Origin: a virus
DNA length: 44,553 nt
Virus genome (UHGV): UHGV-0048026
Direction: 5' to 3' (one strand)
This document shows positions 8,001 through 37,821 of this stretch, piece after piece (the first letter of the stretch is position 1; each line of letters begins with the position of its first letter). The translations under genes were made by a program, and so were the position numbers. The notes under the pieces were generated by a model. It had not been told where the DNA came from, did not search any database, and saw only the letters and a list, made by a program, of their open reading frames with translations.

Positions 8001-8672
8001 TCAGCGACCAATCACCACAACCTGACCACCGTCCCCTTCGTCTGCCGTGCTGATCTCCTGAGAAACCACGCGTGACCCCACGCGCATTTCCCCGTACAGA
8101 ACAGGCAGAACATTGCCCTGGGCAACCATGTTATCCAGTGAGGAGAAATAGGTGTTCTGCTTACCGTTATCCGTTGTCTGTGTACGGGGAGTTCTGGCTT
8201 TCGGTGCCAGCATCTGCGCCACACCACCGAGCACCATACTGGCACCGAGAGAAAACAGGATGCCGGTCATACCACCGGCCCCAATGGCTGCCCCCCATGC
8301 TGCAAGGGTGGCTCCGGCGGTAAAGAATGATCCGGCAATGGCGGCAGCCCCCAGGACAATCTGGAATACGCCACCTGACTTGGCCCCGGCGACTCTGGGA
8401 ACAATATGAATCACAGCGCCATCAGGCAGAGTCTCATGTAACTGCGCCGTTAACCCGGACGTGCTGACGTCCCGCCCGGCAATCCGTACCTGATACCAGC
8501 CGTCGCTCAGTTTCTGACGAAACGCCGGGAGCTGTGTGGCCAGTGCCCGGATGGCTTCAGCCCCCGTTTTCACACGAAGGTCGATGCGGCGACCAAATCG
8601 TTGTAAATCCCCGTAAAGGCAGATGCGCGCCATGCCCGGTGACGCCAGAGGGAGTGTGTGCGTCGCTGCCAT
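8001..8672 (-). CDS. I: tail assembly protein I
   Basis: 223-aa ORF, lambda gpI-like, overlaps K 3' end by 103 nt as in lambda. Confidence 0.9.
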   Translation of the reverse strand: MAATHTLPLASPGMARICLYGDLQRFGRRIDLRVKTGAEAIRALATQLPAFRQKLSDGWYQVRIAGRDVSTSGLTAQLHETLPDGAVIHIVPRVAGAKSGGVFQIVLGAAAIAGSFFTAGATLAAWGAAIGAGGMTGILFSLGASMVLGGVAQMLAPKARTPRTQTTDNGKQNTYFSSLDNMVAQGNVLPVLYGEMRVGSRVVSQEISTADEGDGGQVVVIGR

Positions 8673-9322
8673 TTGTCGGTGTACCTCTCTCGTTTGCTCA
8701 GTTGTTCAGGAATATGGTGCAGCAGCTCGCCGTCGCCGCAGTAAATTGCGGCGTGATTCGGCACTGATGAACCAAAACAGCACAGCAGCACATCGCCCGG
8801 CTGTGCCGCTGACAACGGCACCTGATACAGCCCTGTGGCCTCCAGATTATCCAGATAGAGATTCTGGCCGTTACGCCACCAGTCATCCTCACGATGAAAG
8901 TCCGGCATCTCAATCCCCGCCAGATGATAAGCATCCCGGAACAGTGTGTAACAGTCCGTCACACCGTGCTCAAAGCGCCGCCCGGTGAGATACGGCACAC
9001 AGCGGAACTTATGAATCGTCCCCCGGCAGACCAGCCACCACGGCAAATCACTCTGCACCTGCAGCCGCCGGTCGGCCTCACTCAGCCAGGGCAGACCACC
9101 GGGGTGGCTGTGGACCAGCGCCACAATCTCACCCTGCATTTCTGCCTGCAGCCAGTCTTCCGGCGACATACGGAAATACGCCTCCGGCTCACCGGAGATA
9201 TTCACGCAGGGAAAATATCTTTCCCCCTCCGGTGTTCTCACCACGAAGCCGCACGACTCTGCTGGCGCACATCGCCGGGCGTGCGCCAGAATCGCTGATT
9301 CTGTCTCTGTCATGGGATTCAC
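8570..9322 (-). CDS. K: tail assembly protein K (MPN/NlpC-P60-like)
   Basis: 250-aa ORF starting 4 nt after L stop; lambda gpK-like sequence (MTETESAILAHARRCAPAESCGFVV...); lambda annotation uses a shorter internal start. Confidence 0.85.
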   Translation of the reverse strand: MNPMTETESAILAHARRCAPAESCGFVVRTPEGERYFPCVNISGEPEAYFRMSPEDWLQAEMQGEIVALVHSHPGGLPWLSEADRRLQVQSDLPWWLVCRGTIHKFRCVPYLTGRRFEHGVTDCYTLFRDAYHLAGIEMPDFHREDDWWRNGQNLYLDNLEATGLYQVPLSAAQPGDVLLCCFGSSVPNHAAIYCGDGELLHHIPEQLSKRERYTDKWQRRTHSLWRHRAWRASAFTGIYNDLVAASTFV

Positions 9323-26966: not shown

Positions 26967-27042
26967 TGGTGCCGACTACCGGAATCGAACTGGCGACCCG
27001 GTGATTACAAGTCAGTTGCTTTGTCTGCTAAGTTAAATCGGC
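26967..27042 (-). tRNA. tRNA-like sequence, anticodon loop CUUGUAA (UGU, Thr-type) with mismatched stems; possibly pseudo-tRNA
   Basis: 76 nt, 3 nt from tRNA-Gly; good acceptor stem (GCCGATT/AGTCGGC), GTTCGATTC T-loop and CCA, but only 3 of 5 anticodon-stem pairs and mismatches in D and T stems. Confidence 0.4.
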
Positions 27043-28875: not shown

Positions 28876-30070
<1,195 letters not shown>

Positions 30071-30220
30071 TTAGATATTTTAGATATTTTAGATATTTTA
30101 GATATTTTAGATATTTTAGATATTTTAGATATTTTAGATATTTTAGATATTTTAGATGTTTTAGATGTTTTAGATGTTTTAGATGTTTTAGATGTTTTAG
30201 ATATTTTAGATATTTTAGAT
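30071..30220. repeat. 9-bp tandem repeat array, about 16.5 copies (TTAGATATT x9, TTAGATGTT x5, TTAGATATT x2, partial)
   Basis: perfect head-to-tail 9-mers read directly from sequence; first unit supplies the IS5 target duplication; array ends about 180 bp upstream of porin ATG. Confidence 0.95.
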
Positions 30221-30399
30221 AAATACTGCATTGAAAATTATCACCAATATTTAACACCACACATAAATGTGATATTGATCACACTATAAACCCTTAAATA
30301 AACCCCATATCTTGAAATAACAGTACCGATTAGATGTATATTTAAGTTGCAGCGACATCATTTTTTAATAATAGTTCCCAAAAGGACTAAGGATTCATA

Positions 30400-31482
30400 A
30401 TGAAAAAATTAACAGTGGCAATCTCTGCTGTAGCAGCATCAGTATTGATAGCTATGTCCGCTCAGGCAGCTGAGATTTATAACAAAGACAGCAATAAATT
30501 AGATCTGTACGGAAAAGTTAATGCCGGGCACTACTTCTCCTCTAACGATAAACACGATGGTGACAAAACTTATGCTCGTCTGGGATTCAAAGGTGAAACC
30601 CAAATCAACGATAAACTGACTGGTTTCGGTCAGTGGGAATATGAATTCAAAGGCAACCATGCTGAATCTCAAGGTTCCTCCGCAGACAAAACCCGTCTTG
30701 CGTTTGCTGGTCTGAAATTCGGCGACTACGGCTCCATCGATTATGGTCGTAACTACGGTGTAGCATACGATATCGGTGCATGGACTAACGTTCTGCCAGA
30801 ATTCGGTGGCGATACCTGGACTCAAACAGATGTATTCATGACTGATCGCACCACAGGTGTTGCAACTTATCGTAACAACGACTTATTTGGTCTGGTTGAT
30901 GGTCTGAACTTTGCTGCTCAGTATCAGGGTAAAAATGACCGCACTGACGTAACTCAAGCTAATGGTGATGGTTTCGGTTTCTCCACTACTTATGAGTATG
31001 AAGGATTCGGCGTAGGTGCAACCTATGCTAAATCTGACCGCACTAATAATCAGGTTATCTACGGTAACAACAGCCTGAATGCATCTGGTCAAAATGCTGA
31101 AGTATGGGCAGCTGGTCTGAAATATGATGCGAGCAACATCTATCTGGCTACTACCTATTCTGAAACCCAAAACATGACTGTTTTTGGTAAAAACCATATT
31201 GCCAACAAAGCACAAAACTTCGAAGTAGTTGCACAATATCAGTTCGACTTCGGTCTGCGTCCGTCCGTTGCTTACCTGCAATCTAAAGGTAAAGACCTTG
31301 GCGTTTTTGGTGACCAAGATTTAGTCAAATATGTTGATGTAGGTGCAACCTATTATTTCAACAAAAATATGTCAACTTTTGTTGATTACAAAATCAACCT
31401 ACTTGACAAAAATGATTTCACCAGAAATCTTGATATAAACGCCGACGATATTGTTGCTGTCGGTATGGTTTACCAGTTCTAA
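30400..31482 (+). CDS. outer membrane porin, Lc/NmpC (OmpC/OmpF family)-like, intact
   Basis: 360-aa ORF with signal peptide [39 protein letters not shown] mature N-terminus and C-terminal ...VYQF; SD AAGGA 7 nt upstream. Confidence 0.92.
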
Positions 31483-33698: not shown

Positions 33699-34582
33699 GC
33701 AGCCACACCTCTGATACGAGAACGGTAGCTGGGCCAGTTGAACGACAACCAGTTGCGCCCCCCGTCTGTGATCCTGTCGGCAATGCGGGGGCTGATGAAC
33801 ACCCACAACTCTTCCGGTGAAAGGTTGCTGATCAGAATGGTGGGCAGGATACTTTCGTACCGGGCATTGATAATTTCCTGCAAAATAGCCATTTCAGCCG
33901 CGCTGCCAAACTGAACACCAACTTCGTCGATGATCAGCAAATCCATTGACGCATAATGCTCAATAACTTCATCCGCTGTTTTTTCGCTGTCATTCCGCCA
34001 GCAGTTTTTCACAGCACGGGTAAGGCGCATCACGTCGGTGATCTCCACACTGGCCAGATAGTTACGGATGATGTGTTTTGCCATTGATACCGCCAGATGA
34101 TTTTTCCCGGTTCCGCAACTACCAGTCATAACAAGACTGGTACCGTTCTCCAGCATATCTGGCCAGTTCTCCGCATAGCGGCGACAGGCCGCAAGATTTC
34201 TGGCTGCGTCAGGATTAACCTCCAGATAATTATCAAACTCGCAGTCCCGAAAACGCAGGGCAATTCCGGCGTTATCAGTCAGCTCTTCCGCCTTGAGGGA
34301 CGACAGCTCCATGGTCAAATCGTTGGCCTCAGCGATCAAGCAGTCAGGGCAGCATGAAATTTTTTCTCTGTCCTCGCCATTACGATCGCTCCACACCAGT
34401 ATATGCGTACTGTATTTACCGTGTTTTTCGCAATATCCGCGGCCTTCACGCATCAGGCAGGAACGATAAGGCCATGGCTTTTCGCCCTTCTGAGCAAATG
34501 CAATCTCTGCCCGTAACTCATCCATTCGCGCCTGTAGTCTTTTTTGTTGTTCACGCAGGTTAAACGTCATCATCGCTGTCAC
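33695..34582 (-). CDS. DnaC-like helicase loader (AAA+ ATPase)
   Basis: 295-aa ORF; Walker A GSCGTGKNHLA, Walker B LLIIDEVG; upstream of helicase. Confidence 0.85.
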   Translation of the reverse strand: MTAMMTFNLREQQKRLQARMDELRAEIAFAQKGEKPWPYRSCLMREGRGYCEKHGKYSTHILVWSDRNGEDREKISCCPDCLIAEANDLTMELSSLKAEELTDNAGIALRFRDCEFDNYLEVNPDAARNLAACRRYAENWPDMLENGTSLVMTGSCGTGKNHLAVSMAKHIIRNYLASVEITDVMRLTRAVKNCWRNDSEKTADEVIEHYASMDLLIIDEVGVQFGSAAEMAILQEIINARYESILPTILISNLSPEELWVFISPRIADRITDGGRNWLSFNWPSYRSRIRGVAA

Positions 34583-34583
34583 C

Positions 34584-35408
34584 TCAGAATGTCAGTTTGT
34601 CACTGGATTTACCGAATTTGTCAGACATGGCTCCCAGGCCAGCCAGGACATCGACCTGTCGCTGTCGCCCACCTCCGGGAGCGGCTGGCTGTTGCCAGAA
34701 TTCTTCGAAGTGACGATCGGGTCCAAAGAACGTCGCGGCCTGCTTCACGAACTGTGTGCCGGTATTTCCTGTAGCACGTACCCAGGCGGCATAACGTCTC
34801 ACACCATCAAGCATGGTCTCCGGTTTTATTCCCTCCCTGATACGGGCTTTCCAGGCTTTGAAGGCTGCTGACTTGGAATTGCCACCAGCACGTTTGGGAT
34901 ATTCCTGCCAGGCCTGTTCAAATTCCGGTGAATATTCCTGTCGGGCAGAGCGCGCTGGTGCAGACGCGTCAGCGGGTGCGCCAATTGTTGGTTCATTGAC
35001 TGGTTCTTTGACTGGTTCAAAAGAGTGACTGGTTCTGGGTGAATCTCCTGCACTACCCCCTGGTGCAACTCCTGCACCACCTGGTGAATTTGCTGCACTA
35101 GGTAGTGAATTATTTGCACTACCCCCTGGTGAATCTTTTGCACCATCAAGACGAAGAAGATAAATATTGCTCGAGTTCCCTTTTTCACCTTTCCGGGAAA
35201 CTTTTTTTACCAGTCCGGATTCACAAAGAGCCGTAATATGATTCATCACAGAACGTTTGCTAATCTCGCACTGATCAGCAATATGCTGATAGCTGGGCCA
35301 GCACTCGCCCTGATCGCTGGCATTATCAGCCAGCTTAATCAGAACCAGTTTTCGCAACGGATTTCCCACGCGAATTTTCATCGCTTTCACCATCAGCTCC
35401 ATGCTCAT
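34584..35408 (-). CDS. replication initiator (O-like, N-terminal HTH, Gly/Ser/Pro-rich linker)
   Basis: 274-aa ORF; N-terminal HTH-like segment; linker encoded by iteron-containing DNA; position upstream of loader and helicase. Confidence 0.75.
   Translation of the reverse strand: MSMELMVKAMKIRVGNPLRKLVLIKLADNASDQGECWPSYQHIADQCEISKRSVMNHITALCESGLVKKVSRKGEKGNSSNIYLLRLDGAKDSPGGSANNSLPSAANSPGGAGVAPGGSAGDSPRTSHSFEPVKEPVNEPTIGAPADASAPARSARQEYSPEFEQAWQEYPKRAGGNSKSAAFKAWKARIREGIKPETMLDGVRRYAAWVRATGNTGTQFVKQAATFFGPDRHFEEFWQQPAAPGGGRQRQVDVLAGLGAMSDKFGKSSDKLTF
34997..35135. repeat. putative replication origin iterons inside initiator gene
   Basis: three copies of TGACTGGTTC (34997, 35009, 35026) and four copies of TGCAC(T/C)-N-GGTG 17-19-mers (35049, 35072, 35096, 35115), followed by a moderately AT-rich stretch; lambda-type ori-in-O arrangement. 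Confidence 0.5.
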
Positions 35409-35629
35409 AACACACCTCCCAGGCGTTTAAACATTTTTCCGGACTGAAACGCCATCAACGGATAGCTAATGGTGTAGTTACGCCCCAGTAATTCACACAC
35501 GACTTTCTGGCTTTCGGTGCTGACCAGGCAAACCCGCAGAACGTGACCGTTGCTGGTGGCGAACCACTGCCCCACACGGGGGCAACGGTTGTATCGGTGA
35601 TACAGGGAATTAACGATGCGGCGAATCAT
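35405..35629 (-). CDS. hypothetical protein (74 aa)
   Basis: ORF overlapping neighbours by 4 nt on both sides (operon coupling). Confidence 0.5.
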   Translation of the reverse strand: MIRRIVNSLYHRYNRCPRVGQWFATSNGHVLRVCLVSTESQKVVCELLGRNYTISYPLMAFQSGKMFKRLGGVL

Positions 35630-35859
35630 GGATGTACCTCCTGCACATCAGCCATGAGCATTTTACTGGCTGTTTCCAGCGCCTGGTCGGCGCTAATTTG
35701 CATGACAGCCAGTGAATGAGGAACGAAAGTCCCGGCATATTCTGTTTCACTGGTGGCGTGCTTATGCGCCCTGTCTGCAATAACAGAGATGTCAATAAGC
35801 GCATCCATCAGAGTTTTAATTACCGTAACAGTGGTATCTGAATAATGGTTATTACACAT
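35626..35859 (-). CDS. hypothetical protein (77 aa)
   Basis: ORF coupled to flanking genes by short overlaps. Confidence 0.5.
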   Translation of the reverse strand: MCNNHYSDTTVTVIKTLMDALIDISVIADRAHKHATSETEYAGTFVPHSLAVMQISADQALETASKMLMADVQEVHP

Positions 35860-36517
35860 GACGCGCCTCCCGTTGATTACAGCGGAAAGCAGTGTGAGTC
35901 AGGCTGGTTTCGGCCTCATGAAATGCTTCAATACAGCTCTCGTAGTACCGCATTGTGCGCAGACTTAACCCAAGCTGAAGCATCATCAGACCATCAAGGG
36001 TGATGTAATAACCACGCAGGGAATCGCCATACACGTGGTAAGTACCCGGAATGAAATTACGGGAGAAGAATTCACGTGAGCAGTTCAGATACTCGATTTT
36101 GTCGACGATGTTCTGGTGCATGCGCTTAAAGTGGCAGGCAACATGCAGGGAGAAAATAACAGCTTTGCCGTTGACGACTTCGATTTTCAGGTATGGGGAA
36201 GTTGGGACTGTAGCCATGATGGCAGCCTCCGTATGCAATGGATAACTTCCACCACCGGAGGTTCCAATCTCACTGGTGGTGAACTGGACAGGGTTGGAAC
36301 TACCGGCGCATACGGAAACCGGCGAGCCTTTCGGCTCCCCTGCCCAGCCCACCATAATTCTGGCGTGCGTGAGCGCGGACGATAAAAAAGACGCTGGCGC
36401 GTCATATATCGCCGTATGCAATTCCGGGGTTCCAATCCCGACACCCGCTTTATAAGGTGCCAGAACAGTGTAACGTCCCGAAATTGCAGAATCAATATTT
36501 AGGCTTGAAACATTCAT
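35852..36517 (-). CDS. hypothetical protein (221 aa)
   Basis: long ORF with no recognised motif; weak SD. Confidence 0.55.
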   Translation of the reverse strand: MNVSSLNIDSAISGRYTVLAPYKAGVGIGTPELHTAIYDAPASFLSSALTHARIMVGWAGEPKGSPVSVCAGSSNPVQFTTSEIGTSGGGSYPLHTEAAIMATVPTSPYLKIEVVNGKAVIFSLHVACHFKRMHQNIVDKIEYLNCSREFFSRNFIPGTYHVYGDSLRGYYITLDGLMMLQLGLSLRTMRYYESCIEAFHEAETSLTHTAFRCNQREARHV

Positions 36518-36605
36518 ATGCTTACTGGTATTTTTACTAACGCAAATGTTCTTGGATGTTACTGGCTTACTTCTTTTGTGAAGTTGCCTTTACTAACGTT
36601 GAGCG

Positions 36606-36631
36606 AGCCGGGTCACTACCCGGCTTTTTTT
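36606..36631 (+). terminator. intrinsic terminator on the strand opposite to surrounding genes (candidate small RNA 3' end)
   Basis: AGCCGGGT-CACT-ACCCGGCT hairpin followed by T7 on the plus strand; no plus-strand CDS ends here. Confidence 0.45.
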
Positions 36632-37344
36632 CACCGCTGCCAACCAATAACCTGAAATAACCCCATTTTCGGGTGATACCAGCGAGTCCCTCGCGGTTCT
36701 GCTTCCTCCATAACCCGATAAAAAGCAGCCATAAACGGTTCCACAGCAACAATTGCGCGACGTGACAACAATCCGTCCGGCGTCATGAACTCATGGGTGT
36801 CTGTAGGAATTTGATAGGCATTCACCAGATTGCGGCATTTATCATCTGACAAACCGGTTTTTGCTTTCAGTTGGCGATATCCGGCATAGCCCTCACGAAT
36901 GGTACCCCTTTTGATTTGCTCAACTGTTTCGGCAACATGGCTGACTTTTTCTTCCACCTGAGTGATCCGTTTCTGCTGACGAACGGCTTCAAGAGCCATC
37001 GCAGCAACCATTTCAATTTCGCTCATTGGCTTACGGATCTGTTCTTCCAGTTCACGCCAGCGATCTACCAGGCGAGCAGTGAATTCAGGGCAGAGCTGTG
37101 CGACGACAATGATGCTGTCGCGCTTACCTTGTTCTCCTTCAAACAGGTAATGCTCATATTGAACTTTAAAACCTAAGTTATTGATTTTCTCGGAAACAGC
37201 CATTGGCGGTTTCCGGATGATGTTTTTAGCAACCAGGCGTTCGATACTACGTTTAACATCTGAGTGCTGACTACCCACCAGCTCTGCGATCTCAACGCTG
37301 GTCATGGATGCTTTGTCGTTAAAAATTGCGGTGTTCACTGCCAT
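36631..37344 (-). CDS. Rha-family phage regulatory protein
   Basis: N-terminal MTSVEIAELVGSQHSDVKRSIERL resembles the Rha (Phage_pRha) motif; start ambiguous (ATG 37344 with adjacent SD, or GTG 37338 with 6-nt spacing). Confidence 0.7.
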   Translation of the reverse strand: MAVNTAIFNDKASMTSVEIAELVGSQHSDVKRSIERLVAKNIIRKPPMAVSEKINNLGFKVQYEHYLFEGEQGKRDSIIVVAQLCPEFTARLVDRWRELEEQIRKPMSEIEMVAAMALEAVRQQKRITQVEEKVSHVAETVEQIKRGTIREGYAGYRQLKAKTGLSDDKCRNLVNAYQIPTDTHEFMTPDGLLSRRAIVAVEPFMAAFYRVMEEAEPRGTRWYHPKMGLFQVIGWQR

Positions 37345-37457: not shown

Positions 37458-37751
37458 ATGAAAGTTCAGGCCGTTGGTTTATTCTGGTTTCGCGATGCGA
37501 TTCAGTATCATGAGCTCAAAAATATTTTTACTGATGCTGATGTGCTCTCCGACAGTTACACCGAGTGGAAACACGACGCTGAAAAATTGATTAAGCGTGT
37601 CGAAAGAAGCGGGCAACGAGTTATTAAAGTTGAAGCGGATACAGCCGAGTTCATCACCTGGTGTACAAGCGAAGGCATTGGAATCAATGCCGAAGGTAGA
37701 ATGCAGTTCGCATCCTTTAAGGCTTACCAACAACTTCTCAGCGAACGCTAA
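37458..37751 (+). CDS. hypothetical protein (97 aa) on the strand opposite to the early-right operon
   Basis: strong SD AAAGGAGG 7 nt upstream of ATG; overlaps a 110-aa minus-strand ORF (37479..37811) so strand assignment is uncertain. Confidence 0.45.
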   Translation: MKVQAVGLFWFRDAIQYHELKNIFTDADVLSDSYTEWKHDAEKLIKRVERSGQRVIKVEADTAEFITWCTSEGIGINAEGRMQFASFKAYQQLLSER

Positions 37752-37821
37752 TGTGATTGGGGCAATCGAAATGGTTGCCCCATCGTATTTAATAGTTATT
37801 TTTTCGCTCATATCACCACCA

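Follow-up and report, generated by a model that had tools for sequence, protein, structure and literature searches.

A probable IsrK/C4-type RNA immunity cassette fused in frame to a Rha-like cargo upstream of the replication genes of a phiP27-like lambdoid prophage

In the virus genome UHGV-0048026 (44,553 nucleotides; this whole stretch is called the window below), three open reading frames (ORFs) of 221, 77 and 74 aa are packed between rha and the replication initiator, which raises the question of what such a block encodes at this place. The original prediction, made from the letters alone, took them for three genes of unknown function that are translated together in the early-right operon, and listed host takeover, toxin-antitoxin and anti-defence as possible roles. 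Our analysis showed that the first of the three ORFs is mainly a P4/P1-type RNA immunity cassette (IsrK/seqA plus C4/CI) fused in frame to a Rha-like protein, here called the cargo. With a probability of roughly 0.8, the region as a whole is a P4/P1-type RNA immunity switch placed before the replication module of a lambdoid prophage and followed by two small accessory proteins, p77 and p74. The window is 100% identical to the E. coli SE11 chromosome (NC_011415.1, 2122844-2167396), and the element is a phiP27-like lambdoid prophage, which carries a LexA-type CI repressor.

An RNA cassette within the first ORF

The original prediction recognised no motif in any of the three ORFs, but the 221-aa ORF matches the Pfam families Phage_ASH (PF10554, E=8.5e-17) and Phage_pRha (E=2e-6) as well as two Rfam families above their gathering scores. 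Therefore, "three genes of unknown function" does not hold for the first ORF, which is mainly an RNA cassette of a known type with a Rha-like domain, while it stands for p77 and p74. Within the 5′ 300 nt of the 221-aa ORF lie a promoter-like element, a small RNA (sRNA) of the IsrK/seqA type that ends in a terminator, and an antisense RNA of the C4/CI type. The features of this segment, in which SD denotes a Shine-Dalgarno sequence, are as follows.

36517..35852, minus strand: the 221-aa ORF ("ash family protein"), a confirmed ORF
36467..36495, minus strand: predicted constitutive promoter P_isrK, analogue of P4 PLE, based on hexamer conservation and geometry
36384..36460, minus strand: IsrK / P4 seqA-like sRNA, Rfam RF01394
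36435..36429, minus strand: b1 decoy site, UUGGAAC, in the hairpin-2 loop of IsrK
36420..36412, minus strand: a1 decoy site, UGCAUACGG, a shorter copy of the a site within IsrK
36272..36359, minus strand: C4 / P4 CI-type antisense RNA, Rfam RF01695
36321..36307, minus strand: antisense element a′, CGGUUUCCGUAUGCG, in the hairpin-2 loop of C4
36300..36294, minus strand: antisense element b′, GUUCCAA, at the 3′ junction of C4
36223..36267, minus strand: mRNA target region (b2 plus a2), based on complementarity to C4
36267..36261, minus strand: b2 site, UUGGAAC, just after C4
36237..36223, minus strand: a2 site, UGCAUACGGAGGCUG, covering the SD of ATG 36217
35852..36217, minus strand: cargo coding sequence, 121 aa with a single Rha-like (Phage_pRha) domain, based on SD, domain match and codon constraint

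The IsrK match to RF01394 is full length with 63.1 bits (gathering score 50), and the C4 match to RF01695 covers model positions 1-87 of 87 with 84.3 bits (gathering score 45). A weak c4-a1b1 Rfam match overlaps the isrK match, and a terminator scan found the intrinsic terminator of IsrK as a hairpin at 36403..36390 followed by a U-run. C4 folds into an outer stem of 17 bp and two hairpins. Further traits of the C4 family are RNase P processing out of a longer transcript and repression in vivo. P_isrK consists of a -35 hexamer TTGATT (36495..36490), a 17-nt spacer and a -10 hexamer TACACT (36472..36467), with a predicted +1 at about 36460; its geometry relative to position 1 of the isrK model is that of P_isrK in Gifsy-1 (TTGACA-17-CTATAT) and of P4. 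The a′:a2 duplex comprises 15 bp including G-U pairs, and the b′:b2 duplex 7 bp. Since a2 includes the strong SD GGAGG (36230..36226), which lies 8 nt upstream of the internal ATG 36217, the duplex would cover the start of the cargo. Within the window, a2 is the sole exact complement of C4 and a1 the other match; no further C4 targets were found there.

A pattern scan of IMG/VR for the C4 core gave 120 loci, from which 41 distinct cassettes, each exactly 294 nt long and free of indels, formed the comparative set. In most of these 120 loci, the sequence in common with the window spans 36496 to 36203, starting at the -35 hexamer and ending about five codons into the cargo that begins at ATG 36217; past 36203, the cargo gene is exchanged from locus to locus. 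Both P_isrK hexamers are invariant in the 41 variants, while the spacer and the interval between -10 and +1 vary. The pairings between C4 and its target are kept through changes on both sides, affecting 5 of the 12 a′:a2 pairs (98% paired) and 4 of the 7 b′:b2 pairs (100% paired). The pairings with the IsrK decoys show the same behaviour, with compensatory changes in 5 of the 9 a1:a′ pairs (100% paired) and 4 of the 7 b1:b′ pairs (97.6% paired), compared to about 40% pairing in controls with slid partners. The outer stem and both hairpins of C4 are 100% paired throughout, with double-sided changes at 3 of the 5 hairpin-1 pairs and at 1 outer-stem pair.

The three copies of each site thus co-vary, yielding 4 a-types × 4 b-types. 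The a′ types are CCGUAUGCG, CCUUGAGCG, CCUUGAUCG and CCGAUAACG, each with matching a1/a2, and the b′ types are GUUCCAA, GUGCAAA, CUGCGA and ACGCCAA, each with matching b1/b2; they assort into 15 site combinations. This three-way covariation offers ready-made orthogonal RNA-RNA specificities. Related cassettes are present in 386 of 50,697 phage records, mostly Stx phages, and one record, APSE-3, carries an explicit C4 RNA annotation. Some related phages contain tandem double units of cassette plus cargo, namely L098 (10219-10512 and 10875-11168) and L019. The two cassettes of L098 share the a-type and differ in the b-type, as would be expected if neighbouring switches must be orthogonal.

The opposite strand next to the cassette has elements of its own. 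A plus-strand intrinsic terminator (GAGCCGGGTCACTACCCGGC followed by T7, 36605-36633) lies directly past the rha stop, and a promoter-like TTGAAA-18-(TG)TATTTT (36505-36534, plus strand) stands back-to-back with P_isrK. Both are kept in 21 distinct homologues, while the body of about 95 nt between them varies and has indels. The plus-strand region 36505-36633 matches no Rfam family; it could encode a small RNA, divergent or antisense, or serve as a guard terminator.

Coding constraint along the 221-aa ORF

Phage_ASH matches aa 16-108 of the 221-aa ORF with 62 bits (cut-off 26), and this part, 36194-36472 of the window, is the RNA cassette. The ORF starts upstream of the internal promoter, spans both RNAs and is in frame with the cargo, as ATG 36517 and ATG 36217 share one frame with 0 stop codons in between. 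The coding test was performed on the same 19 sequences for the Ash part (before ATG 36217) and the cargo (after it), and only single-nucleotide codon changes were counted as synonymous or non-synonymous. In the Ash part, the variable columns are distributed over the codon positions as 37/36/27 (p=0.40) with a synonymous to non-synonymous count of 17:39; no protein-coding constraint was seen in the Ash codons of these 19 sequences. In contrast, the cargo showed 23/21/59 (p=1.6e-6) and 61:33, and the difference between the two parts is clear (Fisher p=4.8e-5).

The cargo itself aligns with TIGR02681 (phage_pRha) over aa 11-109, corresponding to model positions 4-107 of 108 (E=3.4e-10, 40.0 bits against a cut-off of 45.95), and gene callers of other assemblies call products of 120-121 aa (P0173-P0175). 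Combined with the contrast between the two parts, this indicates that the real protein starts at 36217 and that the "Ash" codons are a translated RNA cassette. In the 221-aa ORF, the Phage_pRha match spans aa 123-203 with 28.7 bits against a Pfam cut-off of 29.9, and tblastn aligned the cargo with the N-termini of Rha/Ant proteins at 30-41% identity. Two other relationships were rejected: BLASTP gave no alignment of the cargo with P4 Kil, and there is no sequence similarity to Gifsy-1 AnrP.

As the Ash segment lacks coding constraint, annotations as "ash family protein" probably mark RNA immunity cassettes. The widespread PF10554 label would then, here and in P4, stand for the conceptual translation of an IsrK/seqA plus C4/CI cassette. 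The core element, an RNA immunity system of a known kind, is found here in a new setting, and its erroneous annotation is worth fixing.

The proposed switch and its alternatives

A close parallel is satellite phage P4 (NC_001609), in which the ORF historically named "cI gene product" matches Phage_ASH (E=4e-16; segment L205:8330-8521). This ORF overlaps the Rfam C4 match at 8507..8420, which is the CI RNA, and the isrK match at 8692..8615 is seqA. In P4, the long ORF starts where the alpA-like ORF88 stops, reads across both RNAs and finishes with "QEAAIMATT...". The two systems share the whole arrangement: a long ORF beginning upstream of an internal promoter, seqA/isrK, CI/C4, the target and a short in-frame ORF, all of it upstream of the replication gene(s) and with a conceptual protein matching Phage_ASH. 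The SD-ATG junction GGAGGCTGCCATCATGGCTAC of the cargo start is identical to that of the P4 kil start at the eta/kil junction, and the longer P4 (CAGGAGGCTGCCATCATGGCTAC) and window (ACGGAGGCTGCCATCATGGCTAC) sequences agree from GGAGG onward. Even the next gene, epsilon in P4, overlaps the preceding stop by 8 nt, as p77 does in the window. The 221-aa ORF is thus an analogue of P4 eta and, by the same analogy, the C4-controlled first cistron is the cargo, in the position of P4 kil. However, P4 is a satellite and the window a lambdoid prophage with its own LexA-type repressor, the short ORF of P4 is Kil instead of a 121-aa Rha-like domain dissimilar to it, and the P4 long ORF is coupled to its upstream gene, unlike that of the window. 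P4 immunity also involves Rho-dependent termination further downstream, at timm. PMC10111431, drawing on Forti et al. 1999, describes a constitutive promoter within eta whose transcript undergoes termination via CI and seqA interactions; Kil is a truncated Eta translated on read-through, and Eta translation prevents termination. Synthesis of full-length Eta is confined to transcripts of the upstream late promoter and is coupled to the alpA homologue (PMC10111431). The paper further states that relatives of CI and seqA in PICIs are picked up by the Rfam C4 and isrK models, and it places Phage_ASH among the Pfam families of a "Bro network" (PMC10111431).

Phages P1 and P7 resemble the window in having two antisense elements, with upstream complements a1/b1 and downstream complements a2/b2, the downstream site covering the ribosome-binding site (RBS) of the first ORF. 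In their immI region (c4-icd-ant), C4 RNA is co-transcribed with its target, and a few loop bases set the specificity. In the P1-like locus L064, a2 lies over the SD of the first ORF and the b-type is that of the window. In contrast to the window, no long ORF spans C4 in P1-like loci, L064 included, and P1 has icd and Ant where the window, without a separate icd-like ORF or a recognisable Ant, has the Rha-like cargo, p77, p74 and the replication genes. Gifsy-1 (isrK 34316..34240, C4 34214..34131) shows the same element order as the window, with a2 over the SD of the next gene, there anrP. It differs in that "orf45" occupies a frame of its own that stops on the anrP ATG, in place of the fusion to the cargo seen in the window, that the cassette follows Q instead of preceding replication genes, and that isrJ is present, for which the window has no counterpart. 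In Gifsy-1, IsrK has its own promoter and a leaky terminator and acts in trans to turn on translation of anrP; isrK is followed by STnc1160, a processed RNA (PMC4825925). STnc1160 is of the C4 type. A side observation on this phage (L206 34076-34130) is that the C4 loop complement AUCACCGG abuts or overlaps the anrP SD GGAGGG; C4/STnc1160 pairing at the anrP RBS could thus contribute to the silencing credited there to orf45 and alternative folds. The cassette also precedes ant in VT2-Sakai, where it lies in the nin region.

In the window, pR-cro is followed by a convergent plus-strand gene, rha, the three ORFs, the initiator, a DnaC-like gene, DnaB, a small ORF and Q. The ORFs downstream of the first one are the following.

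35859..35626, minus strand: p77, the 77-aa ORF, a confirmed ORF
35629..35405, minus strand: p74, the 74-aa ORF, a confirmed ORF
35408..34584, minus strand: replication initiator, HTH_36/DnaD-like and O-like, based on Pfam and PHROG matches

All three ORFs were recovered with the lengths originally predicted, and the overlaps along the chain of 221-aa ORF, p77, p74 and initiator are 8, 4 and 4 nt, the last one being ATGA. These overlaps support the predicted translationally coupled block in the early-right operon between Rha and the initiator. From the cargo start through Q, successive genes overlap or sit a few nt apart, so that the initiator is the first gene of a coupled initiator-DnaC-DnaB-hypothetical-Q chain downstream of the switch. 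As read from the sequence, each downstream start has a GGAGG-type SD within the 3′ end of the preceding gene. RefSeq (NC_011415.1) annotates the identical three coding sequences, one as "ash family protein" and two as "hypothetical protein". The predicted correspondence to the place of cII in lambda agrees with relatives L016 and L005, in which the block sits directly after a CII (CP76-type) gene. The window and the lambda cII/oop region likewise agree in their position between immunity region and replication initiator. However, lambda encodes CII there, while the three ORFs include no CII homologue: none of them matched CII families in Pfam, PHROGs or NCBIfam, and the known CII-like activator that the original prediction named as a possible refutation was not found among them. 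Furthermore, lambda has an oop-type antisense transcript, whereas the RNA of the window would be sense-strand, cis-encoded and trans-acting.

The mechanism that we propose is modelled on P1 c4-icd-ant, P4 seqA-CI-seqC/eta-kil and Gifsy-1 isrK-anrP. In the lysogen, the internal promoter would produce IsrK and, via terminator read-through, C4. Pairing of C4 with b2/a2 would then mask the SD of the cargo and block its translation. Because all downstream genes (p77, p74, initiator, DnaC, DnaB, Q) are coupled by overlaps of 1-8 nt, the untranslated RNA would be exposed to Rho, and the initiator, DnaC, DnaB and Q would stay silent from the internal promoter. The decoy sites of IsrK could titrate C4 and so switch the cargo on. 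After induction, transcripts from pR may be translated through the long in-frame ORF, as in P4 eta, which would override the RNA block. With sixteen possible a × b specificities, each cassette should be blind to non-cognate ones. The position of a P4/P1-type antisense switch right before the replication genes and Q suggests that RNA adds a level of control over replication and the lysis-lysogeny choice in this group, whose relatives include Stx-converting phages. In a wider form, which is less likely than not, the P4-type switch of phiP27-like lambdoid prophages would be more than an antirepressor control: as an additional immunity layer made of RNA, it would license the replication genes together with Q. 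Its combinatorial loop code of at least 4 × 4 would make prophages in the same host heteroimmune, the sole reason for an open "Ash" ORF would be the override by pR ribosomes, and p74, always linked to the switch and delivered by it, would be a new replication-control or RNA-polymerase/helicase-binding factor.

Several observations weigh against the proposed switch. For the promoter, C4 processing, Rho polarity and the role of IsrK as a decoy, the case is built on analogy throughout. As a strong SD precedes every gene downstream, the replication genes may be affected by polarity in part only. In all 41 variants the long frame is open, but this avoidance of stop codons is only weakly significant (rough P ~0.02, with 1.7% of shuffles open). 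ATG 36517 has no recognisable SD and follows rha after a gap of 113 nt, unlike P4 eta and unlike L016 and L005, where the long ORF overlaps the upstream CII gene by ATGA; without an SD and without coupling to rha, an eta-like override is doubtful in the window. The cargo is a bare Rha N-terminal domain that scores below curated family cut-offs. Finally, the Gifsy-1 study credits the "orf45" RBS and alternative mRNA folds, and not C4 pairing at the anrP SD (PMC4825925).

Three other explanations were considered, of which the 221-aa ORF as a genuine two-domain Ash plus Rha-like protein, acting as a transcriptional regulator or antirepressor with the RNA motifs merely embedded, appears very improbable. 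A frame that is open in every cassette variant and in most of the 120 loci speaks for such a protein, as do the matches to Phage_ASH and PHROG "transcriptional regulator" families and the RefSeq annotation; the equivalent long ORF of P4, Eta, is moreover reported to be translated from an upstream promoter (PMC10111431). However, the Ash half shows neither the third-position excess nor the synonymous changes seen in the cargo, and its amino-acid changes are radical (HT/IK/LE/LS; VC/LI/LS/DN) and follow the RNA base-pairing. A promoter is predicted inside this ORF, whose start lacks an SD, and about 20 of the 120 loci, P1-like ones included, have an interrupted frame, while in Gifsy-1 the ORF over C4 and anrP are in different frames. 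Finally, the type member of Phage_ASH is the P4 "cI" ORF, which is known to yield RNA. A different possibility is that the cassette controls the cargo alone, as in the antirepressor switches P1 c4-ant and Gifsy-1 isrK-anrP; the cargo would then inactivate the repressor and trigger induction, and the replication genes and Q would be expressed from pR, ungated by C4. This is conceivable but doubtful. In Stx phages and Gifsy-1 the cassette indeed precedes ant or anrP at a distance from the replication module, antirepressor annotations exist for homologous cargos, and the strong SD on every downstream gene fits independent expression. On the other hand, the cargo is a truncated single domain, the cassette is immediately followed by a coupled chain that leads without gaps to the initiator and Q, and it is found in all 74 p74/replication loci with enough upstream DNA, and P4 shuts off its replication gene with the same cassette, according to the account of P4 in PMC10111431.

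The idea of a host-takeover, toxin-antitoxin or anti-defence trio, as originally suggested, is an unlikely one. It draws on three small, tightly overlapped early genes and on p77, which looks mobile in that it occurs in a minority of loci and in satellite-like islands. There is also a precedent by position alone, since C4/CI is followed by kil as the first ORF in P4 and by icd in P1, and P1 icd, the positional equivalent of the cargo, is toxic. P4 kil, in the same position, is toxic as well (PMC10111431). Against this idea, PADLOC gave no matches at E <= 1, and searches of Pfam, NCBIfam and PHROGs revealed no toxin or antitoxin domain. Kil and the cargo are not related, and p74 is fixed beside the replication genes rather than variable. 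Taken together, a P4/P1-type switch ahead of the replication module is the reading that we prefer.

p77, p74 and the surrounding genes

Both small ORFs behave as real genes, judged by an excess of third-position changes and the lack of internal stops. The variable columns are distributed as 15/11/27 in p77 (p=0.02) and as 14/15/37 in p74 (p=0.0005), with 0 internal stops in either. p77 and p74, both with conserved homologues, are genuine proteins restricted to enterobacterial prophages, and they belong to PHROGs of unknown function, phrog_5146 and phrog_1153, respectively. NCBIfam and PADLOC yielded nothing informative on either of them. The structure-based search proposed originally gave no significant fold match for p77 and only generic matches for p74.

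p77 has 185 enterobacterial homologues, all of which, where named, are called "hypothetical protein" or "prophage protein". Its AF2 model is a two-helix hairpin (helices 5-37 and 42-75, pLDDT 79). Only a minority of related loci contain p77, sporadically inserted between cargo and p74. At the end of the preceding genes there is a conserved "...EV(R/H)P*" junction, in which the SD of the following gene lies; this suggests that p77 was inserted at this coupling joint. A homologue with 74% identity occurs in islands of the order int-alpA-367aa-p77-75aa-DUF4222-primase; in the p77-bearing satellite-like island L207, neither C4 nor isrK was found. A relationship to P4 epsilon was rejected, as the two proteins are unrelated despite agreeing in position and in the 8-nt overlap.

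In p74, residues H11, C16, C34 and C45 are invariant, and the AF2 model combines an N-terminal helix with a five-stranded SH3/Tudor/KOW-like barrel (pLDDT 79). A profile search placed the family in 21 clusters among 1.8 billion representative proteins; two large-protein matches (P0203 and P0212) are repetitive surface proteins and look spurious. Where enough upstream DNA was available, the cassette precedes p74 in 74 of 74 loci, with cargo lengths of 359-954 nt. p74 is the constant gene between a variable cargo and the replication genes, and it is kept when the cargo or the initiator is exchanged. It most likely acts with the replication module, and its strict linkage to the switch and the replication genes makes it a well-defined target. 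Assignment to DUF4222 (PF13973) was rejected: the Pfam score is 12.3 bits against a cut-off of 27 (E=0.13), hhalign gave a probability of 1.4% with the DUF4222 protein of the window itself, and none of the four profile-search matches that were checked against Pfam contained this domain.

The initiator downstream of p74 is flagged by RefSeq as a pseudogene "missing C-terminus" (34662-35408), and its ORF still reads 274 aa to 34584. In the relatives L016 and L005, the initiator has another C-terminal tail and another downstream gene, so the difference may reflect a mosaic junction rather than decay. Between cro and rha, a plus-strand gene of 97 aa (37458-37751) has a strong SD, AAGGAGG, and a plus-strand terminator at 37758-37782; it is transcribed towards cro and lies antisense to any transcript that reads through from pR. 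A minus-strand ORF of 110 aa (37479-37811) overlaps it, and no family matches were obtained for this region (37458-37811).

Further away, an IS5-family element (ISKpn26) and a full-length porin gene annotated as ompC occupy 29022-31482, with Q on one side and the late/lysis genes on the other. Next to tRNA-Gly, Rfam gives a second tRNA-like match (26970-27042, minus strand, 43.7 bits), which is absent from the ARAGORN calls and from RefSeq and may be a degenerate tRNA. Lastly, an Rfam IS009 match of 227 bits lies at 93-291 on the minus strand, inside the tail-fibre assembly gene.

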